Assembly (NCBI GenBank): GCA_905478465.1
Contig: CAJQIN010000002.1
Span: 88,312 to 152,311 of the forward strand
Length of the DNA: 64,000 bases
From: Minisyncoccota bacterium
GTDB lineage: Bacteria; Patescibacteriota; Minisyncoccia; Phycocordibacterales; CAJQIN01
Direction of reading: 5' to 3'
A program made the position numbers and the translations under genes. Shown here piece by piece: positions 6,959-48,547 of this stretch (position 1 is the stretch's first letter; the number at the start of each line of letters is the position of its first letter). The notes beneath the pieces were generated by a model. It was not told the origin of the DNA and made no database searches. It was given only the letters and a program-made list of their open reading frames with translations.

Positions 6959-7663
6959 TTATATTGTTTTACCCTTTCTCATTAGAGAAATCTCAGTAGT
7001 GATCCGTCTCATATACTGACATAATTCACCAATACGAATTTTAGTCAATTGCAGTTTTATAAAATTCACACCACATAATACATGTACCATACTATTCGGT
7101 CCTGCAACATTCAAAAGGTTCCTTTCATGAAAACCCCAATCATGCATACCTACGATATCTAAAAAAACTTCTGAACCATAAGTATTTCTTATGTTTTTCA
7201 ACACCGAAACATTTAAAGGTTCAATAGCTAATCCTAACAACTCACTGTTCTTCACAAAAGAAACTACTTTGCCCTGTTCAGGATCCTCCGTTACCAAAAC
7301 ATTTGCATGCGAAAAAAATTCAATAGAGTCTCTTCCAATTTGGGTTACAGACAGATACCGACTATCTAAGATAACTGGTATTTGTGGCGCCTTCTCTTGA
7401 AGAAAATCTAATGTCTTTTTCAAAGCAAGATACCCTGCATCTCTATACGCAGAATAGGTATCCCATGAAATCAAAAAAGCTCCCGCAAAATCAAGTGTTT
7501 TAGTAATAAGACTCTTATGAAAACGATGCAACATTTCAGCGGCTGTTCGTGTTAAAAAAGGTGCACATTTCAAAACCGAAGTATCCCCTCCTAATTCAAG
7601 GAGCACGCAATGTTCATACTGAAACAATTGCTGTCGAATCATTTCGGAAAAAATTGTATCCAT
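6959..7663 (-). CDS. hypothetical protein (possibly a divergent OMP decarboxylase-like TIM barrel; weak)
   Basis: 234-aa ORF. The segment ILDSRYLSVTQIG loosely resembles the DxKxxDIGxT motif of OMP decarboxylase. This is not secure. Confidence 0.3.
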   Translation of the reverse strand: MDTIFSEMIRQQLFQYEHCVLLELGGDTSVLKCAPFLTRTAAEMLHRFHKSLITKTLDFAGAFLISWDTYSAYRDAGYLALKKTLDFLQEKAPQIPVILDSRYLSVTQIGRDSIEFFSHANVLVTEDPEQGKVVSFVKNSELLGLAIEPLNVSVLKNIRNTYGSEVFLDIVGMHDWGFHERNLLNVAGPNSMVHVLCGVNFIKLQLTKIRIGELCQYMRRITTEISLMRKGKTI

Positions 7664-32692: not shown

Positions 32693-33319
32693 ATGTCATC
32701 ACGTAATTCAAAAGCAACCCAAGATTTTATTCCTGTAGAAGAGATAAGAGATGGTGTTGCGATTCTAAAAGATGGTTCTTTGAGGTCAATTATCATGGCT
32801 TCTTCTGTTAACTTTGCCCTCAAGTCAGATGATGAAAGAACTTCTATTCTTTTTCAATTTCAAAACTTTCTTGATTCTCTAGATTTCTCTGTACAAATAG
32901 TCATCCAGTCACGTCGACTTGATATTCGACCATATCTTGCACTCCTTGAGGAACGTCAAAAGGTTCAGATGAACGACTTAATGAAAATGCAAACACGAGA
33001 ATATATTGGTTTCATAAAAAAATTCACAGAAAGTGTCAGCATCATGACAAAAAACTTCTTCGTAGTAGTATCTTATTCTCCCTCTACACTAGGATCTAAA
33101 AAAGGTGGTTTTATGAAAAAGAAATCTTCAAAAACTAAAGACGTAAATTTTTCTTTTGAAGAAAATTTGAGTCAATTAAACCAGAGAATGTCTGTTGTTG
33201 AACAAGGTCTTTCACGAACAGGTGTACGTGTTGCTCACTTAGGAACAGAGGAGGTGACGGAACTTTTTTATAAATTATTTAATCCTGGAGAGACTGAAAA
33301 ACCAATTAAAATGCAATAA
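32693..33319 (+). CDS. VirB4-like ATPase N-terminal domain (separate ORF or frameshifted part of the next gene)
   Basis: 208 aa. It ends 1 nt before the ATG of the ATPase-domain ORF, and the combined length (about 811 aa) equals a full VirB4. Confidence 0.4.
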   Translation: MSSRNSKATQDFIPVEEIRDGVAILKDGSLRSIIMASSVNFALKSDDERTSILFQFQNFLDSLDFSVQIVIQSRRLDIRPYLALLEERQKVQMNDLMKMQTREYIGFIKKFTESVSIMTKNFFVVVSYSPSTLGSKKGGFMKKKSSKTKDVNFSFEENLSQLNQRMSVVEQGLSRTGVRVAHLGTEEVTELFYKLFNPGETEKPIKMQ

Positions 33320-33320
33320 T

Positions 33321-35132
33321 ATGGGAATTTTTGATTTTTTAAAGAAAAATAATGACAAAGACTTTGATATAAGCACAATTATGCCTGACAACATCTACGA
33401 GGCTAATGCACTTGAATTAAAGGATATTCTTGCACCAAGTGCACTCGAGATCACCCCAAGAGAGATACGTCTTGGAGATAAAGTGTTACGAAGTTTTTTT
33501 GTTATTTCATATCCGAGATTTCTTGCAGAAAGCTGGTTTGCACCAATCATCAATCTGGACAAAATGTTTGATATCACTATCCATATTCATCCTATTGAAA
33601 CATCTATTATTCTCAGAAAATTTCAAAAAAAAGTAGCCGAAATACAAAGTCAGATTAATGAAAGGGAAGAGAAGGGACTTGTTCGAGATCCAAAACTAGA
33701 TACTGCCTATCAGGACCTAGAGGACCTCAGAGACAAACTCCAGCAAGCACAAGAGCGTCTTTTTGATGTAGGACTATACATCACCCTTTATGCAGATAAT
33801 ACAGAAGAATTAGACAAAATTGAATCTGAAATTAAATCTATTCTAGAATCAAAACTGGTTTATGTTAAACCGGCTTTATTTCAACAAGAACAAGGTTTCA
33901 AATCAACTTCACCTATTGCAACAGACCTTTTAGGAGTTCATACGAAATTAAATTCCTCTCCTCTATCAAGTATTTTTCCTTTCATCTCATTTGACCTTAC
34001 ATCAGACAAAGGAGTTCTTTATGGTATCAACCGTCACAACTCTAGTCTTGTGCTTTTTGACAGATTCTCTCTTGAAAACTACAACTCAATTACTTTCGCA
34101 AAGTCTGGTTCCGGAAAATCCTATGCAACAAAACTTGAACTCCTGCGTTCTCTTATGTTTGATACAGAAGTCATTATCATAGACCCTGAAAATGAATATG
34201 AATACATGGCAGAAGCGGTAGGGGGTAGATTCTTCAAAATATCACTTAGTTCTCAACACCACATCAACCCCTTTGACCTACCTATTCCCCGAGAAGATGA
34301 ATCCCCAGCAAGTGTTCTGCGCTCAAACATTATTCACCTTGTAGGACTTTTCCGTATTATGCTCGGAGGCCTTACAGCAGAAGAGGATGCTATTGTTGAT
34401 CGAGCCATCACTGAAACATATGCTTTGAAAGATATTTCTCCAGACTCTAATTTCGCAGATATTGATGCCCCTCTTATGTCTGATTTTGAATTAGTACTAT
34501 CTGGTATGGAAGGCGGAGAGTCTCTTGCACAACGTCTCAGCAAGTACACCAAAGGTACTTGGGCAGGCTTTATTAACAAACCATCGAATGTAGATCTAGA
34601 TAAGAAATTTATTGTATTTTCTATTCGAGATATGGAAGACGAACTCAAGCCCGTAGCCATGTACATCATTACCCACTTCATCTGGAATGCTGTTAGAAAA
34701 GACCTCCGAAAACGCCTTCTTGTAATAGATGAGGCTTGGTGGATGATGAAATCTGAAGACACAGCATCTTTCTTGCTCAATGTGGCAAAAAGAGGACGTA
34801 AATACTATTTAGGACTTCTAACCATCACACAAGATGTCGGCGACTTCCTAAACTCTCCTTACGGACTTCCTATTATCACCAACTCTTCAATGCAACTTTT
34901 ATTAAAACAATCTCCAACCGCCATCGATAAACTACAGGAAGTATTCAATCTGACAGACGAGGAAAAATATCTACTTCTTGAATCTCAAATAGGGGAGGGC
35001 ATATTCTTCGCAGGACTTAAACATGTAGCTATAAAAATCATTGCTTCCTACACAGAGGACCAAATTATTACCTCAGATCCATCTCAAATCTTAGCAATTC
35101 AAAAAGCCAAAAGAGAGTTAGAGCAATCATAA
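33321..35132 (+). CDS. VirB4/TrbE/PrgJ-like type IV secretion ATPase (C-terminal ATPase domain)
   Basis: Walker A FAKSGSGKSYATK, IIIDPENEY, Walker B LLVIDEAWWMM, and RKYYLGLLTITQDVGDF. This is the VirB4 (AAA-like/DUF87) signature set. Confidence 0.85.
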   Translation: MGIFDFLKKNNDKDFDISTIMPDNIYEANALELKDILAPSALEITPREIRLGDKVLRSFFVISYPRFLAESWFAPIINLDKMFDITIHIHPIETSIILRKFQKKVAEIQSQINEREEKGLVRDPKLDTAYQDLEDLRDKLQQAQERLFDVGLYITLYADNTEELDKIESEIKSILESKLVYVKPALFQQEQGFKSTSPIATDLLGVHTKLNSSPLSSIFPFISFDLTSDKGVLYGINRHNSSLVLFDRFSLENYNSITFAKSGSGKSYATKLELLRSLMFDTEVIIIDPENEYEYMAEAVGGRFFKISLSSQHHINPFDLPIPREDESPASVLRSNIIHLVGLFRIMLGGLTAEEDAIVDRAITETYALKDISPDSNFADIDAPLMSDFELVLSGMEGGESLAQRLSKYTKGTWAGFINKPSNVDLDKKFIVFSIRDMEDELKPVAMYIITHFIWNAVRKDLRKRLLVIDEAWWMMKSEDTASFLLNVAKRGRKYYLGLLTITQDVGDFLNSPYGLPIITNSSMQLLLKQSPTAIDKLQEVFNLTDEEKYLLLESQIGEGIFFAGLKHVAIKIIASYTEDQIITSDPSQILAIQKAKRELEQS

Positions 35133-35139
35133 AATAATT

Positions 35140-35661
35140 ATGGAATCAATAAAACGACCAAGGTCTTTAACAAAAAAGAACTTACCCACAAAGGTATCTA
35201 ACAAAGAAAATCAACCTAATACACACATAAACAGTCCTAAAAAAGAAGTATCTTATCGAATATCATGGACCACAGCTTTTTTAATGATATCCCTGACCAT
35301 CGTCTTCGACCTAACTGAAATTATCATCGACTGGCTAGGTAATCTAACAGCAGCTTTTGGACTTGGTTTATTATTCTGGGGTCTCAATATTGGTGGTGTT
35401 ATTTTTATGGGTCTAACTTTTTTTGTCTGGTTTAAAATAAAAAATATTCCCATATTCACAAGTCCTAAAAGAATAGCTACGTCAGCGATTACTTTTATAG
35501 GAGAAATGATTCCTGTTATTAACAACCTTCCGGGATGGACAATAGGTATTATTGTAATAATTATAATAAGTAGATCTGAAGATAGGGGTGGTATCATAGG
35601 GAAAGCAACATCTATAACAAAAAACCTCAAAGGAAAAGCTTCTGTGGGGAAAAAAGGTTAA
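35140..35661 (+). CDS. hypothetical polytopic membrane protein
   Basis: 3-4 predicted TM helices. No recognised domain. Confidence 0.4.
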   Translation: MESIKRPRSLTKKNLPTKVSNKENQPNTHINSPKKEVSYRISWTTAFLMISLTIVFDLTEIIIDWLGNLTAAFGLGLLFWGLNIGGVIFMGLTFFVWFKIKNIPIFTSPKRIATSAITFIGEMIPVINNLPGWTIGIIVIIIISRSEDRGGIIGKATSITKNLKGKASVGKKG

Positions 35662-35691
35662 AGAAATAGAAAATTACGCTATACTATATAT

Positions 35692-36399
35692 ATGAAATAT
35701 TTTTTCTATATTTTTGTTTTTAGTTTTATATTTGCATCAAATATTCCGTATATTTATGCTCAAGAAACAAATTCTTCTGTTAATATTGTTTGGTATGCAA
35801 ACGACTCTTATGTCCCAAATTTTTACAAAGGAAAAGCTCTTCGTTCAGAGTACACAAGCACTACATTAACGGCAATACCTCAAATAAACTATCAAGGTAC
35901 TCTTATTCAAAATTCTGAATTAAATTTTACATGGAAAGTAAACGGAAAAACTTTACAAAACTCAGGATTAGGTAAAAACCAAATAACAATCAAGAATTCT
36001 CTAACATCAAACTCTCCTGAGGTCAGCATTGTTGTCACATCTACGCGCACAGGTCTTTCTGCACAATCATCTTTACAACTACCTGAGTATGAATCTAGAG
36101 TACTACTCTATGAAAACGATCCTCTTTTAGGAATTTTATATAATAAAGCCCTTCTTTCAACATTTTCTGTACAAAATAAAGAAGTAACCCTAAAAGCTAT
36201 ACCGTACTACTTCACAAAAGATGCTCTAGGCTATACATGGAAAATAAATGGAAACACTTTTTCATCAACAGCTCTTGAAGACGGTATCACTCTCAGAAAA
36301 GATGATGCGTCTTCAGGAAGTTCTCAATTAAGTATTTTTGTAAAATCTTTGAAAAATATTTTACAAAAAGAAACCTCTAATCTTACTATCACTTTTTAA
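35692..36399 (+). CDS. hypothetical secreted protein
   Basis: Signal peptide. Beta-rich with repeated WK(V/I)NG(K/N)T segments. Confidence 0.4.
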   Translation: MKYFFYIFVFSFIFASNIPYIYAQETNSSVNIVWYANDSYVPNFYKGKALRSEYTSTTLTAIPQINYQGTLIQNSELNFTWKVNGKTLQNSGLGKNQITIKNSLTSNSPEVSIVVTSTRTGLSAQSSLQLPEYESRVLLYENDPLLGILYNKALLSTFSVQNKEVTLKAIPYYFTKDALGYTWKINGNTFSSTALEDGITLRKDDASSGSSQLSIFVKSLKNILQKETSNLTITF

Positions 36400-36401
36400 A
36401 A

Positions 36402-37037
36402 ATGAAAAAAATACTATTTCTTATAACATTATGGAGTCTGCCAATTTTGTCTTTTGCCCAAGGGACTGCTGGTAATGCTCAACAATATGTCCCCCTTGTA
36501 TCAGACCTTCCTGAAATAATTACAAGTAGTTCTTCTTTTGGAGATTATCTTACTGGTTGGTTTCAACTAATCCTTGGCCTTGTCACCGTCCTTGCAGTTA
36601 TATGGATCACATTAGGAGGTATCAAATATATGTCAACAGATGCTTACTCAGGGAAATCAGAAGGGAAAAAAATGGTTCAAAACGCTATTATAGGACTTCT
36701 TTTAGCGGGAGTATCTTGGCTTATTCTATTCACTATTAATCCCGCTATTTTAAATGTGAATCTTAATTTTACACAACAAGAATCTCAAGATTTTTCAGTA
36801 ACAACAAATATACCTACAGACTCAGGCTCTCTGGAAACCTACTATTGTTTTGTTTGGTATAAAGAAACTTTTTATTTCAGAAACCTGACAGACCCTGCCG
36901 AATCTTGTTTTGTAGATAAAAAAGATTGCACAAAAGCTCGTGCAATAAAAAGAGCTGAATCAGTTAACATGGCCACTTCCCATTGTGCCGAAGCAGAAAG
37001 AGACAGCGCAGCATTATATAAAAACTCAATACAATAA
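36402..37037 (+). CDS. VirB2/TrbC-like pilin candidate with Cys-containing C-terminal extension
   Basis: Signal peptide, then two hydrophobic helices separated by a short charged loop (the TrbC/VirB2 topology), plus an 80-aa C-terminal region with 4 Cys. Confidence 0.4.
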   Translation: MKKILFLITLWSLPILSFAQGTAGNAQQYVPLVSDLPEIITSSSSFGDYLTGWFQLILGLVTVLAVIWITLGGIKYMSTDAYSGKSEGKKMVQNAIIGLLLAGVSWLILFTINPAILNVNLNFTQQESQDFSVTTNIPTDSGSLETYYCFVWYKETFYFRNLTDPAESCFVDKKDCTKARAIKRAESVNMATSHCAEAERDSAALYKNSIQ

Positions 37038-38269
37038 TGACAAAAAAAATTACAATTATACTAACTACGTTAATTCTTATTACAAGTATTGCTTTTGGTA
37101 TCCGCTACTATTTCTTTAACACCTCCATACAAACAAACACAGCAACATCTACTTCTTTTACTAATAATATTTTTGGTTTTCTTGGTATAGGATCCGATAA
37201 TCAGAATGTGGCAGACCAACCCATTAACAAAGTGTCTAATACCAACACCCTGACCAACACTGTTATACCCACACTTAGGCATATCACCGAAAATCCTGTT
37301 GCAGGAGCAACGTTTGTTGGGACAAGTACTATTCGTTACGCGAACAGAGGAAATGGACATATTTTTGAGACACCAACAAACTCTCTGGAAACGGTTAAGA
37401 TTTCTAATACTACCATTCCAAAAGTATACGAAGCTTACTGGGTAAACAATGGAGAGAATGTGATCTACCGACGCCTTAAAGAAAATACAAACACTATCGA
37501 AACCAGTTTTCTTGAGTTACGAACTAAAACAGGTAGCACCACAGATTTTCTACGAGATACCATCATCACTTTTTTACCTGACAACATTACCGATCTTGCG
37601 GTATCAGTGAACACCGATAATATTGCTTACATTCTTCCAATAGACTCTTCTGCTCAAATCACCACAAGCAACCCTGATGGCTCATCACCTTCTTCTTTTT
37701 CTATACCTCATCCATCATGGACACTCTCATGGACAGATTCAAACATCCTTACTATTGTTCCTAAAACAGCTTCTAATGTTTTAACATCGATGTATTCTAT
37801 ATCCAAAACCAAAAACCTTATGCAAGAAATCGACGACAACCCTGGTCTAACAATACTAAACACACCTAAACGAACACTGTATTCATTCTCAACAAAAAAC
37901 TCTTTATTTCTGGAAGTAAAAAATTCTGACGACTTGGTTATTTTACTGTACCCATCAACTCTCCCAGAAAAATGCACCCCTACAGATACCACACATGTAA
38001 TATGTGGAGTTCCCACATCAATTCCACAAGCCTCATATCCTGAAAACTGGTACCAAGGTGTAGTTTCATTTATCGATGAAATACGTACATACAATCTTGA
38101 AACAGGAGAATCTGTTATAACATACACACCCCAAGAAGAATTCGACATAATCAATCCTCAAATATCTTCTGACGGAAAATACTTTATGTTCACAAATAAA
38201 AAAGATTTAAGCCTTTGGGTATTAAACCTTGATGAAGTAGGGGAGGAGACAACGGTAAACACTTTCTAA
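37037..38269 (+). CDS. hypothetical membrane-anchored extracytoplasmic protein (possible beta-propeller)
   Basis: N-terminal TM helix and an S/T/N-rich beta-rich body. The C-terminal SDGKYFMFTN...LWVLNL resembles TolB-like propeller blades. Confidence 0.35.
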   Translation: MTKKITIILTTLILITSIAFGIRYYFFNTSIQTNTATSTSFTNNIFGFLGIGSDNQNVADQPINKVSNTNTLTNTVIPTLRHITENPVAGATFVGTSTIRYANRGNGHIFETPTNSLETVKISNTTIPKVYEAYWVNNGENVIYRRLKENTNTIETSFLELRTKTGSTTDFLRDTIITFLPDNITDLAVSVNTDNIAYILPIDSSAQITTSNPDGSSPSSFSIPHPSWTLSWTDSNILTIVPKTASNVLTSMYSISKTKNLMQEIDDNPGLTILNTPKRTLYSFSTKNSLFLEVKNSDDLVILLYPSTLPEKCTPTDTTHVICGVPTSIPQASYPENWYQGVVSFIDEIRTYNLETGESVITYTPQEEFDIINPQISSDGKYFMFTNKKDLSLWVLNLDEVGEETTVNTF

Positions 38270-40142: not shown

Positions 40143-41501
40143 TTGTTAATTATGAATGAAAAACAACTTTGGGATAAAGTATTGGTAGAGGTGGAGCTTA
40201 GTATTTCTAAACCAAACTTCAATACTTGGTTTAAAGATACATTCATCTCAAAAATTGACGGGGGAATGGTACATGTAGGTATTCCAAATGCTTTTGCACG
40301 TGAATGGCTTTCAACTAAATACCATAGCTTCTTGTTAAAAACTCTTCGCACACTCTCATCCGAGGTTAGGGGAATTGAATATTGTGTATCAAAACTAAAC
40401 CCACACCAGAAACAAGAGGCAGAAATTCATACAAATAACACTGAATCCAAAAACACCCTGCCTCTAGAAGAACACTATGTAAATAAAGAGAATAACCTTA
40501 ATCCACGATACACATTCGACACTTTTATTGTTGGACCATTTAATGAACTTGCTCACGCTGCAGCTCAAGCCATTGTGGAACGTCCTGGTATTGTCTACAA
40601 CCCTTTATTTATTTATGGAAATACCGGACATGGAAAAACCCACCTCATACAATCGATAGGGAACCAAATAAAAAAAGTTTTCGACAAGAAACAAGTATTC
40701 TATGTAACCTCTGAAAAATTTGCTCTCGACTACATAAACTCTGTCCAAACAGGAAAGGTAAATAATTTTAAAGAAAAATATCGAAAATATGACGTCCTCA
40801 TCATGGATGATATTCAATTTTTCGCAGGAAAAGAAAAATCTCAAGAAGAATTATTCCATCTTTTCAACTATCTCTACGACAATAACAAGCAAATTATCTT
40901 TTCTTCAGATAAACACCCTAATTACATAAACAATCTAGAAGAAAGACTTAAATCACGCTTTGGAGCGGGTATGATTGTTGATATTCCTACACCAGACCTT
41001 GAGTCTCGTGTGGCTATTCTAAAAAAGAAAGCTCTTGCAAGTAATATCATCCTCAAAGATGAGGTTATACAATTCCTTGCAAGTAATATCACCACAAACA
41101 TTCGAGAATTAGAGGGTGTTCTAAACACTCTGTCCTGCCAAACAGACCTCAAACAAAGAGATCTCAATATAAATGAGATTAAATTCCTCATTAAAGACAA
41201 TACCCAAAGACCAAAAACAAAATCTCCACAAGAAGTTGTTAAACTTATCTCTGATTATTACAACGTAGAGGAATCTGTTATCTATGAAAAAACTCGTCGA
41301 AAGGAAATCATTAAACCCCGACAAATTATCATGTATATTCTTCGTGAAGATTTCAACATCTCATACCCATCGATAGGGCAGAAGCTGGGGGGTCGTGATC
41401 ACACAACAGTTATCCACTCTTGTGAGAAAATAAAGCTCGAAGTTCAGAAGGATGATGTGTTGGCACAGGAGATAAATCAGATACGTTCGATGTTGGTATA
41501 A
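40143..41501 (+). CDS. dnaA: chromosomal replication initiator protein DnaA
   Basis: AAA+ Walker A GNTGHGKTHL, Walker B LIMDDIQF, and a C-terminal DNA-binding domain (GGRDHTTVIHSCEKI). Confidence 0.95.
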   Translation: MLIMNEKQLWDKVLVEVELSISKPNFNTWFKDTFISKIDGGMVHVGIPNAFAREWLSTKYHSFLLKTLRTLSSEVRGIEYCVSKLNPHQKQEAEIHTNNTESKNTLPLEEHYVNKENNLNPRYTFDTFIVGPFNELAHAAAQAIVERPGIVYNPLFIYGNTGHGKTHLIQSIGNQIKKVFDKKQVFYVTSEKFALDYINSVQTGKVNNFKEKYRKYDVLIMDDIQFFAGKEKSQEELFHLFNYLYDNNKQIIFSSDKHPNYINNLEERLKSRFGAGMIVDIPTPDLESRVAILKKKALASNIILKDEVIQFLASNITTNIRELEGVLNTLSCQTDLKQRDLNINEIKFLIKDNTQRPKTKSPQEVVKLISDYYNVEESVIYEKTRRKEIIKPRQIIMYILREDFNISYPSIGQKLGGRDHTTVIHSCEKIKLEVQKDDVLAQEINQIRSMLV

Positions 41502-41704: not shown

Positions 41705-42802
41705 ATGAAAGTAGAGTGTGTAAAAGAAAAAATACAAGAAGCTGTTTCGAAAGCAGAAAAGGTAACGGGGAAACATCTAACCCTGCCAATTCTTTCGTAC
41801 ATCATTTTTGAAGCAACAAAAGAAAGTTTGATTATCAAAGCAACAAACCTTGATGTTGGAGTTGAGATCAATGTTCCATGTAAAGTTTTCGAAGAGGGTG
41901 TTGTGGCTGTACCCGGATCAGTATTTAGTTCTCTTCTTTCAAATCTAACAAATCAGAAGGTTGTTCTGGAAACACAAGAACAAACACTTTTAGTTTCAAC
42001 CGAAACAAGCTCCACAACAATCAAAACGGTACCTCATGACGACTTTCCTAGTATACCGAAGTCATCAAGTCAGGAATCTTTTTCCGTGCACTCAGAGTCA
42101 TTTATCGAGGGAATCAAATCTGTTTGGTATGCAGCAGCTGTTTCAAGTATGAAACCAGAATTATCTAGTGTTTTTGTAACTCACAATGAAGATAATATTA
42201 TTTTTGTAGGAACAGATTCATTCCGTTTGGCAGAAAGACATATTCGAGTAAAAAAAATAAAAGATTTTCCTAACATTCTCATCCCGGTAAAAAATATTCC
42301 AGACATTATTAAAATACTCGAAGGTATTTCTGAAGATGTTGAATTGTATATAGCAGAAGATCAGATGTTGATTAAAACACAAGATATAGAGCTAGTATCC
42401 CGTCTTGTTGACGGATCTTTTCCTGATTACAAACAAATTATCCCTGCAGAAAAAACCACATCAGTGACTGTTTTGAAGAAGGATTTATTGCATGGTCTAA
42501 AAACTGCAAATATTTTCTCAAACAAATTCAATCAAATACACTTGATGGTTAATCCTGAAGCAAAAATATTTTCTTGTGATACGCAAAATACTGATGTGGG
42601 AGAAAACACTACACACATAGACGCTGTATTGAAAGGGGATACTGTAGAATTGAATTTTAATTATAAATATATTGTTGATTGTTTTCAGTCAGTAGATGGG
42701 GATTCTGTAGCATTAGATTTTAATGGGTCTAATAAGCCGGTGGTGATTCGTGATATTTCAAACCCATTGTTCTTGTATTTGGTTATGCCTATGTCTCGTT
42801 AA
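41705..42802 (+). CDS. dnaN: DNA polymerase III beta sliding clamp
   Basis: 365 aa with the three-domain clamp layout, directly downstream of dnaA and oriC. Confidence 0.9.
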   Translation: MKVECVKEKIQEAVSKAEKVTGKHLTLPILSYIIFEATKESLIIKATNLDVGVEINVPCKVFEEGVVAVPGSVFSSLLSNLTNQKVVLETQEQTLLVSTETSSTTIKTVPHDDFPSIPKSSSQESFSVHSESFIEGIKSVWYAAAVSSMKPELSSVFVTHNEDNIIFVGTDSFRLAERHIRVKKIKDFPNILIPVKNIPDIIKILEGISEDVELYIAEDQMLIKTQDIELVSRLVDGSFPDYKQIIPAEKTTSVTVLKKDLLHGLKTANIFSNKFNQIHLMVNPEAKIFSCDTQNTDVGENTTHIDAVLKGDTVELNFNYKYIVDCFQSVDGDSVALDFNGSNKPVVIRDISNPLFLYLVMPMSR

Positions 42803-43076: not shown

Positions 43077-43454
43077 TTAGCAACTTGTTTTGTAAATTTG
43101 CCTCCAGTTTAAAGTTCTGAACTCGTCCAGTAAGGGGAGCCAGTTTGGACGGTCCGAGTAATTCTCGGGCCGTTCTGCATTCTGAGTTTTCATTTTTACG
43201 GCTAAAGCAAAGGGTTTATTGTATGAATAACTTACTTTTTTATTCTCCAAGAAGTCATCCCGGGTCTTCCAGCTACTTAAATGACTTGGATGCAATTTAT
43301 ATTTTTTAGCAAACGCTTTTGCTGTAGAAATCTTAATCTCATCTCTTTCTTTTGATGTCATCACAGACCATTCAATAAACGCTTTAAAAACATCTGTCAT
43401 TTTAGGACCACATTTCTTTCGGCTTTTTTGGTTACCCCCCAGCAGAATTAACAT
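43077..43454 (-). CDS. hypothetical protein with transposase-type HTH-like segment (possible mobile-element remnant)
   Basis: KISTAKAFAKKYKLHPSHLSSWK resembles the IS3-family OrfA HTH (…stlykW.k). Marks the boundary of the higher-GC island. Confidence 0.3.
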   Translation of the reverse strand: MLILLGGNQKSRKKCGPKMTDVFKAFIEWSVMTSKERDEIKISTAKAFAKKYKLHPSHLSSWKTRDDFLENKKVSYSYNKPFALAVKMKTQNAERPENYSDRPNWLPLLDEFRTLNWRQIYKTSC

Positions 43455-43882
43455 TTTGTTTACCTTGTTCTTGTGTCATATGCGTTATTTACTCACTTTT
43501 TGAGCACGCTTAAGTGTTAATTTGTTTTCTTGTATGGTTCGAAACCTATTATCATCCCTTCTTTTCAAATCATTATTAATCTTCGAACCTACTTGAGACG
43601 TCTTTATGTCGACCAGCATCTTGAAAAAGCCCAAAAGGTTTTGGTCCACTGTATTTATTGGAGTTTTCGCACATTTGGCTCTTGTCATAGATAACAAAAA
43701 AGACGCCTCGTAATGTGCGTAATCGGTTTGAGTGAGAAACCTACACGCGCACCACGTCTGCGTCCTTTCGGAGCCAGCCCAGCATTACTACCTCTCTATG
43801 CTGGGATCTGTACGTTAGTTGTAATTTAATAATGTCAATTTTTCATAAAAATTGCAATACTTACTTATAAACATGTTAAACC

Positions 43883-44542
43883 TTGTTACTGAGACCTATT
43901 AATGTAATGCCTTGTTGGGCAGAAAATGCTAAAATGGCCTTACTTATGTCTACATTACATTGGTACCAAACAAAAACACTTCCATCCAAAAGTTACACCT
44001 GTGGTCACTGCGGTAATCAACTTGCGTCTAATGTTGGCTTCCAGGGAAGTGCCCAGGAGGATGGTGGTGGGCGGCCTGATCGTTACATTTATATTTGTCA
44101 TCACTGCTTTAAGCCAACCTACTTCTCTCCAAAAGCAGAGCAGGTCCCCGGCTCTAGACCAGGAGAAGATATTTCTGGCATAGATGAGGTCGGAGTTGAA
44201 ACTTTATATAAAGAAGCGAGAGACGCATATTCAAAGAACGCCTTTACCGCGACAGTTCTCTCTTGTAGAAAATTACTTATGCATATAGCGGTTTCAAAGG
44301 GGGCAAAACCTAATCAAAAGTTCATAGTTTATGTTAAATATCTTTCAGATAATAATTTTGTTCCGCCGGGAGCCAAAGATTGGGTTGATCATATTAGAGA
44401 AAAAGGTAATGAAGCAAATCATGAGATTGTGGTCATGACCAAAGAGGAAGCCGATGATTTATTGGCATTTGTAAGCATGCTTCTAAAGTTAGTATACGAG
44501 TTCCCAAGTAAGATGAAAAAAAAGGATCAACCTGAGAATTAA
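43883..44542 (+). CDS. Zn-ribbon plus DUF4145-like domain protein
   Basis: N-terminal CxxC...CxxC (YTCGHCGN, YICHHCFKP). The C-terminal helical domain with TATVLSCRKLLMHIA resembles the DUF4145 CRxxLE core seen in R-M/Abi contexts. Confidence 0.4.
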   Translation: MLLRPINVMPCWAENAKMALLMSTLHWYQTKTLPSKSYTCGHCGNQLASNVGFQGSAQEDGGGRPDRYIYICHHCFKPTYFSPKAEQVPGSRPGEDISGIDEVGVETLYKEARDAYSKNAFTATVLSCRKLLMHIAVSKGAKPNQKFIVYVKYLSDNNFVPPGAKDWVDHIREKGNEANHEIVVMTKEEADDLLAFVSMLLKLVYEFPSKMKKKDQPEN

Positions 44543-44552
44543 GGCAAATAAC

Positions 44553-44900
44553 ATGTCAGACATTAATAAACTTATCAAAAGAATAGCTGACTTTAGGGAC
44601 GCAAGGGATTGGAAACAATTCCATAACCCCAAGGATTGTGCGATTTCTCTGTCTCTTGAAGCATCGGAAGTGCTTGAACATTTTCAGTGGAAGAGCTCTG
44701 AAGAAATAAAAGAATATGTAGAAAGCAACAAGGGAGAGATCTCCGAGGAACTTGCTGATGTTTTGTATTGGGTTCTTTTAATGTCTAACGATCTGGATGT
44801 AGATATCGCTGATGCTTTTGAAAAGAAGATGAAGAAGAATGAAGATAAATACCCAATAGAAAAAGCAAAAGGTCGTCACGCTAAATACACAGAATTATGA
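44553..44900 (+). CDS. MazG-like nucleoside triphosphate pyrophosphohydrolase (small all-alpha NTP-PPase)
   Basis: 115 aa with the EExxE metal-binding helix (LEASEVLEHF...ELADVLYW) typical of MazG/HisE-like NTP-PPases. Confidence 0.65.
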   Translation: MSDINKLIKRIADFRDARDWKQFHNPKDCAISLSLEASEVLEHFQWKSSEEIKEYVESNKGEISEELADVLYWVLLMSNDLDVDIADAFEKKMKKNEDKYPIEKAKGRHAKYTEL

Positions 44901-45895
44901 GTAATGTATGGCGATTTACAGGCCCACCTGAAAACTGGATCACAGCTTTTGGAATAAACAACTGGGCACTAAACGAAAACAATAAATCACTCTGGGAGAA
45001 TAAGATAAAACCAGGAGACACGGTAATTTTCCATTCAACAAAGAAGTCAGAGTTCTCAAACAAAACTCAATCAGTTGTAATCGGTTTTGGTTATGTAGGA
45101 AAACCTTTGTATGAGAAGGATGAGCTTTGGTGGCTTCAAGAAGTTAGAGATAATAAAAACTACTGGCCATACGTGGTTCCACTAAAAGAAGTTTATTTAT
45201 TTTCAGATGTTGAAGATATAGATTTCGATACTCCAATACAAGATAAGAGTGAAGAACAGATTACTAGCGAAATAGATACCCTAATTAAGAAAGGCGTTCT
45301 CATCTCTTCATTAAACGAACAGGCACAAAAACAAGACCCATCAGTACCCCAATTCCCAGTCAATGGTTCTGCTTCAGGTATTAATATAATTTATGAAGAT
45401 CTAATCCTTGAACAGGACCGGGACTTTATAGCCAAATCAGAAACTCAAGACACGGAAATACTTGAAAAGAAGCTTGCTGAAAGTTATGACGAAAAATTAG
45501 CATATCTCAGTAAAGAAGAAGTCCTTGATCAAGCTAAAACCTTTGATAACAGTGCTGATGAAGCATATATCGTTAAGTACGGTAAGAAGTGTGTACGCAA
45601 AGAAAACCAAGCCCAGAAGCGTCGTGTGGCCCATATAGAGGACTACACATGTCAGGTTTGCGGTTTTAAGTCTGAATATACTAGAACTAATGGAAAGAAA
45701 GGTTGGATAATTGACATAGACCATATTAAAGAAAAATCTGAAGGTGGTAACGAAAACATGGATAACCTTTGGGCCTTATGTCCTAATTGTCATGCAAAGA
45801 AAACAAGAGGAGTAATCACTGTAGATCTTGAAGCTAAGAAAGTTTACGAAGATAACAAAGAGGTCGAAATTAGAGATAATCATTTGTTCACATGA
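44897..45895 (+). CDS. PUA-like (EVE/ASCH-type) N-terminal domain fused to a C-terminal HNH endonuclease
   Basis: HNH motif CQVCGF...DIDHIKEKSEGGNENMDNLWALCPNCHAKK. The N-terminal 110 aa has the W/GD/beta-barrel pattern of PUA-like modified-base readers. Its start overlaps the MazG-like stop as ATGA. Confidence 0.6.
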   Translation: MSNVWRFTGPPENWITAFGINNWALNENNKSLWENKIKPGDTVIFHSTKKSEFSNKTQSVVIGFGYVGKPLYEKDELWWLQEVRDNKNYWPYVVPLKEVYLFSDVEDIDFDTPIQDKSEEQITSEIDTLIKKGVLISSLNEQAQKQDPSVPQFPVNGSASGINIIYEDLILEQDRDFIAKSETQDTEILEKKLAESYDEKLAYLSKEEVLDQAKTFDNSADEAYIVKYGKKCVRKENQAQKRRVAHIEDYTCQVCGFKSEYTRTNGKKGWIIDIDHIKEKSEGGNENMDNLWALCPNCHAKKTRGVITVDLEAKKVYEDNKEVEIRDNHLFT

Positions 45896-47190
45896 AAACG
45901 GAACTAACTAACAAAGCAGTTAATAGGTTGTATAAATACAGAGCAAACATCGATTTGGAACCACAGTTTCAAAGACAAAAAGTCTGGTCTACTAAAAAAC
46001 AGCAGTATTTTATAGATACTATTTTAAAAAAATGGGGCGTGCCTAAAATGTATTTCCTTTTTCTTAGTAAAAAAGGTGCCGCTACAAACTTGTATGCTTG
46101 TATTGATGGAAAACAAAGGTTAACTGCAATATATAATTTTTTAGGAGATGAAATAGTTTTAAATAAAGAATATAGCGGCATACATGGTGGTAAAAAATAC
46201 AGTGAGTTACCTGAAAAGATACAGGACCAATTTGATGCGTACGAAATAGATATAGAAGAAGTTTCAGAAGCAACAAACGAAGAAATATCGGAATTGTTCA
46301 AAAGATTACAAGGGGGAACCCCGCTTAATTCAGGAGAAAAGTTAATGGCTACCGGTGGTGATCTTTGCAAAAAAATAAAAACTTTTTCTGCACATAAGTT
46401 TCTTAAGGAAAAAATACTATTGTCAGATACTCGATACACATATTTCACCATATGTGCCCAGTTAGCATACTTGGAAACTCACGGGATATCTAACCTGAGC
46501 TTTACTCAATTAGAAAGCTTTCTAAAACATAATAAAAATAATGCTACAGCTGGCTTTGAGCTTAAAAGTAAGTTGAAGAAAATTAAAGAGGTCCTAGATA
46601 CTCTTAAGGTGATTTTTGAAGAAGCTCCAACCTATTTTAAAAACAGGGCTTCTGTTGTATCTACTTACCTTTTAGTATCTGAGCTTATAGATAAAGGAAG
46701 TATTAATGATAAGCATGAAGAAATCAAAGCTTTTTTCGACAGGTTTATGAAAGATTTAGAAGAAGAAATCGAGAAGGGTTCGCAAGCCACAGATGCACAG
46801 CTCATAAGTTATCAATCTTCTGTAACCCAAGGTGCTGACAAACAAAAAAGTATAAAGACAAGACACGAGATACTTATCGATAGATTAATAAAGTTTGATC
46901 CGTCCTTCCACACCTTTTTTAATAAGAACAAAGAGCCAGCGTTGCAGTTCAATGAACTCTACGAAAAGTTTGGGCTTAAATTAGGAAATAGTACAAAAAT
47001 TGATGAGTGGATTTTTGCTCAGAAACCTCGTCTTAAGCGTATTACTTGCGGAAGAAATAGCAATGAAGAAAGTTTACCTACACACATTAGGCATTGTATC
47101 CATCATAAGAAGCATGGAACCTATACAAACTCTGAGCTGAGGAAAGCCATAAAATTACTAGATGAGCTGAAATCAAAACTACCCAAATAA
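45892..47190 (+). CDS. DUF262 (ParB-like nuclease, GmrSD N-terminal domain) protein
   Basis: (Q/E)FQRQxVW and CIDGKQRLTAI, the DGQQR motif of DUF262. The C-terminal half has His-rich HxxxHxxH that may act as a nuclease. Its start overlaps the HNH gene stop as ATGA. Confidence 0.65.
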   Translation: MKTELTNKAVNRLYKYRANIDLEPQFQRQKVWSTKKQQYFIDTILKKWGVPKMYFLFLSKKGAATNLYACIDGKQRLTAIYNFLGDEIVLNKEYSGIHGGKKYSELPEKIQDQFDAYEIDIEEVSEATNEEISELFKRLQGGTPLNSGEKLMATGGDLCKKIKTFSAHKFLKEKILLSDTRYTYFTICAQLAYLETHGISNLSFTQLESFLKHNKNNATAGFELKSKLKKIKEVLDTLKVIFEEAPTYFKNRASVVSTYLLVSELIDKGSINDKHEEIKAFFDRFMKDLEEEIEKGSQATDAQLISYQSSVTQGADKQKSIKTRHEILIDRLIKFDPSFHTFFNKNKEPALQFNELYEKFGLKLGNSTKIDEWIFAQKPRLKRITCGRNSNEESLPTHIRHCIHHKKHGTYTNSELRKAIKLLDELKSKLPK

Positions 47191-47286
47191 TTATTTTGGG
47201 GTGATTAAAAGGTTGGAAGAGTAGAAGTTAAAAGGAGTAGATAATACTACATGGGATTGCTTGGGATAAATTGGTAAAATGAACAC

Positions 47287-48048
47287 ATGTCAGCAATTGC
47301 AAAACTAAACAGAGGGAAAGAACATTTTGCGCGTTTGCGGCAAGTTATTGATGAATATCATGCCTCTACACCCTTCAGTGGAGTGTGTGAGGAAGAGAAA
47401 GAAACGGGTGACCTTGTGTACCGTGTAAAAATAATGAAACCTGTTCCGTCTGAAGAATTAGGACTACTTGTTGGTGACCTCATTCACAATCTACATTCCG
47501 CACTCGACTTGAGAGTTTCTGAGTTGGTTGTGGCAAATGGGAATAAGCCCACAAGAGAACATGCTTTTCCTTTTAGCAGGACCGCCCTAGAAATCCAGAG
47601 CGTCGCTGTTCGATGTTTGGTGGGAGTTTCGCCAGCACACACTCAACTCATTATTGGACTAAATTCCTATCAAGGCGGTAATGACTTACTTTGGGAACTT
47701 CACTATTTAGATATCCTTGATAAGCATCGTCAGTTAATTATCGCTGGCAGTGCCCAACAATCTGTAATAATTGACCCATCAGCGATGCTTAGAAAAATGC
47801 AACCGGAATGGAACATTCCTGAAATACCAGTCGCAATTCGGCCTGCCGAACGAGATTTTCCACTAGTAGATGGCACTGAGCTTTTCCGTGTTAAAAAAGC
47901 GGCCAGAACTGAGGGTGTGGAAGAAAAGGTTGGTTTTCCCTTTGAGATTGCTTACAGTGACGGAAATAATACATATGGTGAAGCGCTTTTACCTAAAATG
48001 GAAGCGATGGTGACTGAGGTTGAGAGAGTACTTACTCAGTTACAGTAA
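47287..48048 (+). CDS. hypothetical protein (island cargo)
   Basis: 253-aa ORF with higher GC than the genome background. No recognised domain. Confidence 0.4.
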   Translation: MSAIAKLNRGKEHFARLRQVIDEYHASTPFSGVCEEEKETGDLVYRVKIMKPVPSEELGLLVGDLIHNLHSALDLRVSELVVANGNKPTREHAFPFSRTALEIQSVAVRCLVGVSPAHTQLIIGLNSYQGGNDLLWELHYLDILDKHRQLIIAGSAQQSVIIDPSAMLRKMQPEWNIPEIPVAIRPAERDFPLVDGTELFRVKKAARTEGVEEKVGFPFEIAYSDGNNTYGEALLPKMEAMVTEVERVLTQLQ

Positions 48049-48139
48049 TTAAATTAGATAGGAACAAAGACCTGATTGGCGGTGAAATAGGTTCGAAGAG
48101 CAGAAGCTAAGGGGAGCCCTTGTAAAGAAAAGTAAAGTA

Positions 48140-48547
48140 TTATTTTTGCTTTTCTAAATATTCCTGAATCAATTCTATATCTCTCAAATCCTTCTCTCTC
48201 CCTAATTGAGTTTTTGCATTTATCAACATCTCTAAACTCATAAAAGGTATTCCTTCAACATAATTTGCGAGAGGTAGTGCTTCATCAAGCGAATAATTTT
48301 CTTTCATAAAATCTAAAGTTTGCTTAGCTCCAGAAATACCTTGGGGATGTTCTAGTGTGGTTGTATATTTATGGTGACGTTTCCAACCTTCTTCTTTTTC
48401 TAATTTTTCAAACAGTATGGGCGAAACTAGGATATCTATATCACCTGCTTCGCGAATACCTAAAACATCTAGAATTGCACTTCCACAAACCATAAATTCT
48501 CCTTCTGGTAAATTTAATTCTTTAACTCTGGAAATATAATCTGACAT
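48140..48547 (-). CDS. minimal nucleotidyltransferase-fold protein
   Basis: GSAILDVLGIREAGDIDILV matches the GS...[DE]xD pol-beta NTase signature. Confidence 0.4.
   Translation of the reverse strand: MSDYISRVKELNLPEGEFMVCGSAILDVLGIREAGDIDILVSPILFEKLEKEEGWKRHHKYTTTLEHPQGISGAKQTLDFMKENYSLDEALPLANYVEGIPFMSLEMLINAKTQLGREKDLRDIELIQEYLEKQK

Follow-up and report, generated by a model that had tools for sequence, protein, structure and literature searches.

A recurrent MazG-like/EVE-HNH gene pair as the probable core of a mosaic defence cluster beside dnaA and dnaN in a Minisyncoccota bacterium

What kind of system is encoded by the block of genes that follows dnaA and dnaN in the Minisyncoccota bacterium of GenBank assembly GCA_905478465.1 (contig CAJQIN010000002.1, positions 88,312 to 152,311; these 64,000 nucleotides are called the window throughout)? 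An earlier note, made from the letters of the sequence alone, had singled out window positions 43077-48547 and proposed that three translationally coupled genes there, for a MazG-like nucleoside triphosphate (NTP) pyrophosphatase, an HNH nuclease with a PUA-like reader and a DUF262 protein, constitute a candidate anti-phage defence system. Our analysis favours a different division of the locus: it is probably a mosaic defence cluster centred on a type IV cassette of two genes, an EVE-HNH nuclease and a pyrophosphatase acting on the nucleotide pool, rather than one three-component system. What is new is the conserved two-gene type IV cassette with its pyrophosphatase partner and, secondarily, an NsnA-like DUF262 module associated with restriction-modification (R-M) genes. 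The genes at the centre of the question are as follows, with lengths in amino acids (aa).

44553-44900, plus strand: MazG-like all-alpha NTP pyrophosphatase, 115 aa (Pfam PF12643)
44897-45895, plus strand: EVE-HNH nuclease, 332 aa (Pfam PF01844 and AlphaFold2 (AF2) fold)
45892-47190, plus strand: NsnA-like DUF262 protein, 432 aa (Pfam PF03235, PADLOC NsnA)

Stop and start codons overlap as ATGA at 44897 (MazG/HNH) and at 45892 (HNH/DUF262), and both overlaps, like the coordinates of the open reading frames (ORFs), were exactly as the earlier note had given them. Its domain calls also agreed with Pfam, which matched MazG, HNH and DUF262, as well as DUF4145 in the preceding gene, at E-values of 4e-19, 8e-11, 5e-16 and 8e-11, respectively.

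The HNH protein is, on its predicted structure, an enzyme of the EVE-HNH architecture found in type IV restriction, with VcaM4I as the closest counterpart. An EVE-like reader (residues ~1-105) is followed by a helical/linker region (~106-230) and the HNH domain (~235-332). PF01844 was matched at 7.7e-11 and NCBIfam PRK00809 at 4.8e-7, and the Pfam EVE match stayed below threshold (E = 0.011). The AF2 model, built from a 36-sequence alignment, reached a mean predicted local distance difference test (pLDDT) score of 91.3, and Foldseek matched it with probability 1.00 to 2p5d (template-modelling score TMt 0.81), PH1033/2hd9, VcaM4I (6yex) and THYN1, and further to ScoMcrA, TagI, YTH domains and EcoKMcrA. 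In the full-length search VcaM4I ranked second (E = 2.2e-6, probability 1.00), with a TM score of only 0.34-0.36 because the domain orientations differ. The model and the Foldseek matches confirmed the PUA/EVE-HNH type IV architecture that the earlier note had proposed. Invariant in 36 homologues were C252, C255, H276, N290, C295, C298 and H299, which comprise the zinc cysteines and the catalytic H276/N290/H299. Within the reader, N13, W23, W33, W78 and W90 were at least 90% conserved and D41 was invariant; in VcaM4I, the pocket for the flipped modified base comprises P24, W82 and Y130.

A phmmer search with residues 1-230 against 1.84 billion representatives recovered 151 relatives, many of which were 500-1300-aa fusions with MrcB_N and a McrB-type AAA_5 domain, so that the reader is placed independently in modification-dependent restriction. 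No methyltransferase domain was detected among the cluster proteins or beside the related cassettes at loci L166 and L167. In IMG/VR, EVE-HNH relatives of full length were lacking and the DUF262 relatives were all distant, and on that result a phage origin of the cassette was rejected.

To place the nuclease in its genomic contexts, HNH relatives were gathered from collections of genomes and metagenomes and through exact look-up. In 14 distinct loci besides that of the window, the gene immediately before the HNH homologue encoded a MazG homologue (the pair loci are L006, L008, L009, L026, L027, L028, L035/L095, L086/L167, L087, L088, L090, L097, which is decayed, and L166), and the 4-bp stop/start overlap was kept in at least 10 of them, with HNH identities of 29-68%. 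The hosts were a Peribacteria metagenome-assembled genome (MAG; L006), an Acidobacteriaceae MAG (L008), Saccharibacteria/Patescibacteria MAGs (L009, L026, L027, L028, L035) and metagenome contigs. A single full-length HNH relative, at L007, was solitary and had no MazG partner. The flanks of the pair loci differed every time, a serine recombinase lying 2.7 kb downstream in one; dnaA, dnaN, DUF4145 and the DUF262 family of the window were absent from all 14, and a hidden Markov model (HMM) of that DUF262 family matched none of the other HNH loci. Since the 14 loci share the pair and share neither DUF262, DUF4145 nor dnaN, the conserved unit is the MazG/EVE-HNH pair, and the three-gene combination put forward in the earlier note did not recur. 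A literature search found no paper linking MazG to EVE-HNH proteins or to modification-dependent restriction.

Two of these loci carry damaged copies. At L097 (3105-3886) the MazG gene is frameshifted and the HNH gene is reduced to its two ends, and at L008 (7001-10031) ~2 kb interrupt the HNH gene; evidently the cassette has been lost or disrupted in some lineages.

The partner is an enzyme of the DCTPP1 type by several lines of comparison. It matched PF12643 at 4.3e-19 (69 bits against a cut-off of 27), the archaeal pyrophosphatase in PDB entry 4qgp at 2e-24 and mouse/human DCTPP1 at 1.4e-17. The metal-binding residues E36, E39, E42, E66 and D69, together with W20 and W46, were invariant in 13 partner sequences, and the metal residues align to E63, E66, E95 and D98 of DCTPP1. 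In the pocket, W20 corresponds to Trp47 and W46 to Trp73, and W73 occupies the Tyr102 position, all conserved; the position of His38 is taken by Ile11. The preferred substrates of DCTPP1 are dCTP and the derivatives of dCTP with a 5-methyl or 5-halo group, and the enzyme controls how much 5-methyl-dCTP the cell contains (PMC4491611). No PADLOC model was matched at E <= 0.1, and thus no known depletion effector of the dCTP deaminase or dGTPase type. The nucleotide depletion suggested in the earlier note is possible, and the specific homology is to this sanitiser of modified dCTP.

The two genes of the pair have diverged to different degrees. Among the loci of the candidate phyla radiation (CPR), MazG partners were 61-75% identical to that of the window, also at loci whose HNH partner had fallen to ~30% identity; constant MazG proteins with divergent HNH reader regions were seen at L027, L028, L088, L090, L026 and L035/L095. 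This suggests, at the level of sequence, that readers diversify behind a constant pyrophosphatase, and it fits the pairing of a conserved enzyme with a sensor that diversifies.

By analogy with VcaM4I, the EVE-like domain would flip out and bind a modified base of the 5-methylcytosine/5-hydroxymethylcytosine (5mC/5hmC) type in invading DNA, and binding would free the HNH domain at the C-terminus for cleavage. The MazG-like enzyme would most plausibly hydrolyse modified dCTP analogues to the monophosphate, which would starve phages that build hypermodified DNA and would also keep modified nucleotides out of host DNA, averting self-attack by the EVE-HNH nuclease. A sharper form of this proposal, which we put forward tentatively and consider rather unlikely, is that the partner serves specifically to hydrolyse modified dNTPs of the phage type (5-hydroxymethyl-dCTP, hypermodified pyrimidine triphosphates), making the cassette a two-pronged anti-hypermodification system. 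If that were true, the precursor pool would be destroyed, modified DNA would be cut, and self-restriction caused by salvaged modified nucleotides would be prevented; the pairing of a nuclease with an NTP pyrophosphatase would then be a general, unrecognised design principle, of which MazG here, MutT beside SauUSI homologues and Nudix beside a DUF262 gene (locus L169, described below) would be examples.

Does the DUF262 protein, whose gene overlaps that of the nuclease, belong to the same system? It consists of a ParB-DUF262 domain (~17-155), a ParBDB-like helical domain extending to ~338 and then a Cys/His-rich C-terminal tail. GmrSD_N (PF03235) was matched at 5.2e-16 and PADLOC NsnA at 2.1e-27 (residues 17-329 against positions 62-376 of the 385-position profile), the motifs QRxxxW and DGKQR were invariant, and the AF2 model (pLDDT 88.9) gave BrxU as its best structural match in Foldseek, along with ParB/Noc. 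Neither the complete protein nor its tail, searched separately, matched DUF1524, and the tail had no Pfam match. In the tail (residues 384-432; 47041-47187) C386, H398, R400, H401, C402, H404, H405 and H408 are conserved, the last seven within H398-I-R-H-C-I-H-H405-x-x-H408-G; it follows a predicted beta-hairpin, fits an R-x4-H (HEPN-like) pattern (R400-x4-H405) and aligns with the HxDH of the HNH domain in fused relatives. Neither Pfam nor Foldseek supported a HEPN or degenerate His-Me reading of the tail, which the model shows as a beta-hairpin and a helix. A search of the neighbouring proteins (HNH, orf253, orf135) with PADLOC gave no match to the NsnB ATPase or the NsnC inPIN-nuclease.

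Elsewhere the gene keeps other company. In 4 of 7 other distinct contexts it lay directly downstream of type II R-M genes, on the same strand and at gaps of -4 to ~+250 bp. Homologues with 42-88% identity are the 3'-terminal genes of unrelated R-M operons:

L171: two C5 methylases and an HNH_2 nuclease, then DUF262
L173: an N4/N6 methylase and an MvaI/BcnI nuclease, then DUF262 with an ATGA-type overlap
L177-180: an HTH controller, a 280-aa protein and a methylase, then DUF262
L183: a methylase, a BpuJI_N/NOV_C nuclease, a methylase and Vsr, then DUF262

At L174 and L176 it was alone or beside uncharacterised genes. The closest copy (88% aa identity, and 80% nucleotide (nt) identity over just the gene) was found at L169, on the SAR86-binned contig NVVJ01000068.1. 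There the DUF262 gene is preceded, at 6966-7004, by an 11-codon remnant of the 3' end of an EVE-HNH gene (EIEIRDNHLFT between two stops) with the same ATGA junction, and in place of the remainder of the HNH gene there are now a Nudix gene (PADLOC PDC-S07, 7e-16) and a gene for a 217-aa protein of unknown function. The remnant and its junction indicate that the weld between HNH and DUF262 is older than the genome of the window and that the DUF262 gene survives without the nuclease.

These contexts bear directly on the possibility that MazG, EVE-HNH and DUF262 form one three-component system, in which the DUF262 protein would act as a GmrS-like NTPase/sensor with the HNH nuclease supplied in trans, as a split GmrSD-like enzyme. 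Both junctions being ATGA overlaps, the HNH-DUF262 junction being ancestral to the window and L169 copies, and DUF262 relatives carrying a fused C-terminal HNH domain in place of the His-rich tail all speak for such a system. However, the window DUF262 family occurred in 0 of the 14 other distinct MazG-HNH loci, its homologues are encoded behind unrelated R-M operons of type II or by themselves, and the L169 copy is intact although its HNH gene has been lost; we therefore regard a three-component system as improbable. Under the mosaic reading, the DUF262 protein would be a separate NsnA/GmrS-like module here welded to the HNH gene. It is probably an NTP-binding DNA sensor that acts through its tail or assists a neighbouring nuclease, which is the least certain part of our account, and NsnA-like DUF262 proteins may be a portable add-on module for many restriction operons.

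The remaining features of the cluster are listed below.

43077-43454 and 43485-43697, minus strand: orf125 and orf70, unannotatable ORFs
43695-43830, no strand assigned: non-coding stretch with predicted structure, separating orf70 from the DUF4145 gene (fold z-scores)
43883-44542, plus strand: Zn-ribbon and DUF4145 protein, 219 aa (Pfam PF13643)
47287-48048, plus strand: orf253, unknown function, from a small family of 15 clusters
48140-48547, minus strand (convergent): orf135, weakly nucleotidyltransferase-like, 135 aa (NTP_transf_5 below threshold)

The genes from DUF4145 to orf253 form one same-strand run, separated by a 185-bp spacer from the minus-strand ORFs upstream, and the source metagenome contigs carry an identical arrangement. 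The cluster lies ~2 kb downstream of dnaA (40143-41501, plus strand) and dnaN (41705-42802, plus strand), both divergent from rnpA-yidC-jag, which the minus strand encodes; cumulative GC skew is lowest at ~40-41 kb, beside dnaA, which fits oriC and puts the defence cluster within ~3 kb of the origin. Of the dnaA-dnaN-dciA core named in the earlier note, dnaA and dnaN were clear and dciA weak, the small ORF after dnaN giving only a weak Pfam match to DciA (E = 0.04). PBP1 and then tyrS lie beyond orf135. At ~33000-37000 (L001 1-2141), genes with TraG/VirB4-like P-loop and type IV secretion system (T4SS) pilin domains are annotated on the source contig, just upstream of a 410-aa ORF at 37037-38269; they make up a type IV secretion/conjugation-like cluster near the origin.

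The DUF4145 protein (Pfam 8.2e-11; phrog_1305 1.7e-22), whose stop codon is followed after 10 bp by the start of the MazG gene, matched PADLOC PD-T7-4 at 7.7e-6, a weak score of 23.5 bits covering positions 4-175 of the 211-position profile. No DUF4145 homologue adjoined any other MazG-HNH cassette examined, and the protein is a candidate for a separate, PD-T7-4-like single-gene defence module. For orf253 there was no match in Pfam, NCBIfam, PHROG, PADLOC or PDB; its family conserves the motifs GDxIHNL[HR]SALDL and LDILDKH. A copy in another genome is 90% identical over 884 nt (window 47234-48117; L181/L182 9948-10831), a match that spans the gene and ~50-70 nt of flank on each side; in that genome, where hpf and msrA enclose the locus, its neighbour is a 107-aa HNH gene. 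By this sequence comparison orf253 is an independently mobile gene; its candidacy as a conserved partner of DUF262 was rejected, the 253-aa gene that follows DUF262 in L183 being unrelated. As for orf135, the minimal nucleotidyltransferase of the earlier note, NTP_transf_5 scored E = 0.002, below its cut-off, and phrog_12854 1e-8; the call stands weakly and the membership of the gene in the cluster is uncertain. The DUF4145 gene, orf253 and orf135 would be further independent passengers beside the cassette.

Because gene-sized, near-identical copies of DUF262 (80% nt) and orf253 (90% nt) occur elsewhere, the cluster is a mosaic whose genes were exchanged separately. It is not the higher-GC island that the earlier note had described: GC was 37.2% over 43077-48547 and 36.7% over the window, 43% of equal-sized sliding windows were as high or higher, and mildly raised GC was confined to the DUF4145 gene (40%) and orf253 (43%), so that a GC or codon island was ruled out and the region is compositionally ordinary. 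The transposase-HTH-like remnants that were thought to bound it at 43077-43697 were not recovered either, as orf125 and orf70 had no match in Pfam, NCBIfam, PHROGs or PADLOC and no homologue among 343 fetched loci; on the source contig only orf125 is called as a gene, orf70 not. Pfam and NCBIfam found no integrase or transposase domains in the cluster proteins, only chance-level repeats were found in a search for flanking att-like direct repeats, and an Rfam scan of the window placed the nearest tRNAs more than 12 kb away, with no tRNA target adjoining the cluster. The marks of a horizontally acquired genomic island are thus absent, yet the near-identical copies elsewhere show horizontal exchange of single genes.

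The supposedly GC-rich stretch at 43700-43860 is indeed non-coding, with a GC content of 40.5%. Its sequence from 43695 to 43830 folds better than shuffled controls (minimum free energy z-scores of -3.4 for the plus and -4.1 for the minus strand); the minus strand has a long hairpin, followed by U6, that ends just before the start of orf70. A permissive Rfam scan assigned no family to the spacer at 43.6-43.95 kb, the window yielding only the distant tRNAs. The element could be a terminator, an attenuator or a small RNA.

The composition of the pair itself could also be read as a selfish addiction module, in which the HNH protein is a toxin that MazG counteracts or regulates (compare the stress link between MazG and MazEF) and no dedicated anti-phage role exists. 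Such a toxin-antidote arrangement would fit a small protein tightly coupled to a nuclease, as is typical of toxin-antitoxin pairs; VcaM4I deprived of its EVE domain and linker is described as a non-specific toxic nuclease (PMC7897488), and an HNH family encoded next to MazG genes has been read in a MazEF context before (PMC5714182). All catalytic metal ligands are kept in the MazG partner, however, which points to an enzyme and not to a binding antidote, McrB restriction proteins carry the same reader domain, and the decayed copies at L097 and L008 suggest that loss is tolerated, so that we give this explanation little credence. That the genes are instead a housekeeping operon for nucleotide-pool sanitation or repair, native to the origin region, as the house-cleaning role of DCTPP1-type enzymes and the native-like GC of the region might suggest and as the earlier note had named as the outcome that would refute it, is very improbable, since the cassette is patchy across phyla, lies in unrelated contexts with flanks that always differ and never near dnaA or dnaN at another locus, has neighbours whose near-identical, gene-sized copies in other taxa indicate horizontal transfer, and stands among genes that the earlier note had rightly called non-housekeeping and of defence type (the EVE-HNH architecture, the NsnA match and the weak PD-T7-4 match).

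Several observations weigh against a mosaic cluster built around a modification-dependent type IV cassette. The residue that hydrogen-bonds cytosine in DCTPP1, His38, is Ile here, so that cytosine specificity can only be putative, and the 5mC/5hmC-type specificity of the reader is likewise putative. No named PADLOC system covers the MazG/EVE-HNH pair. The HNH-DUF262 junction, being translationally coupled here, may be functional; a canonical C-terminal HNH domain is fused in relatives P0161 and P0163-P0171 where the window protein has its tail; and the DUF262 contexts examined number only 8. Finally, no close relative without the cluster was found in the capped genome and metagenome scans, the dnaN cluster having a single member.

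The pair matters for how type IV enzymes are viewed, because these are usually treated as single-protein systems and here a DCTPP1-like partner, catalytically intact as far as its residues indicate, is repeatedly coupled to one. It spans distant bacteria, especially the CPR/Patescibacteria, about whose immune systems little is known. Such a pairing suggests that modification-dependent immunity includes control over the pool of modified nucleotides, and the family may be a source of enzymes with selectivity for modified dNTPs or modified DNA. The locus further illustrates that translational coupling is no proof of a system, since here it joins otherwise independent modules.

Among known systems, the outlying genes compare as follows. 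The DUF4145 protein resembles the single-gene candidate PD-T7-4 in its domain and in a match across most of the profile, and differs in its weak score and in having no association with the MazG-HNH pair elsewhere. With NsnA of Menshen the DUF262 protein shares the ParB-DUF262 and ParBDB-like domains, intact QRxxxW and DGxQR motifs and a profile match of 2e-27 (PMC12065111); unlike Menshen NsnABC, it has an extra conserved Cys/His-rich tail of ~90 aa, and its gene follows restriction genes. GmrSD, BrxU (the best structural match) and SspE share its N-terminal DUF262 domain of NTPase type, whereas their DUF1524 nuclease domain is missing from it and in some of its relatives a canonical HNH domain takes that place.

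The core pair resembles its counterparts more closely. Like VcaM4I, described as an experimentally characterised 5mC/5hmC-dependent EVE-HNH enzyme (PMC7897488, PMC6765204), the nuclease has an N-terminal reader of EVE/PUA fold, linker helices and a C-terminal zinc-stabilised HNH domain, with no methyltransferase adjacent; unlike VcaM4I, to which it is only ~10-12% identical, it is missed by the Pfam EVE model (E = 0.011), and it has a translationally coupled, obligatory-looking MazG-like partner of a kind that the VcaM4I/TspA15I paper (PMC6765204) does not mention. The partner shares with DCTPP1/RS21-C6 and 4qgp the ExxE...ExxD metal site, the aromatics equivalent to Trp47, Trp73 and Tyr102 and a C-terminal KYPxxKxKG..KY; it differs from DCTPP1 in its minimal 115-aa form, in the exchange of the cytosine-contacting His38 for Ile and in leading a restriction cassette, DCTPP1 being a stand-alone housekeeping gene.

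Two pairings of comparable design are on record, neither of them explained mechanistically or tested in its source: Bell et al. 2020 (PMC7641849) remarked on SauUSI homologues that have a MutT/Nudix pyrophosphohydrolase next to them, and MazG genes have been noted beside those for the His-Me "Group 23" proteins (PMC5714182). Equating the present family with Group 23 was rejected, as the two are probably different: Group 23 was described as being without any Pfam entry, and the window protein matches PF01844. In the SauUSI case the nuclease is a type IV enzyme (in Group 23 it is a His-Me finger protein), and the pyrophosphohydrolase belongs to a different superfamily, Nudix; common to both and to the cassette described here is a nuclease gene accompanied by a gene for an NTP pyrophosphohydrolase.

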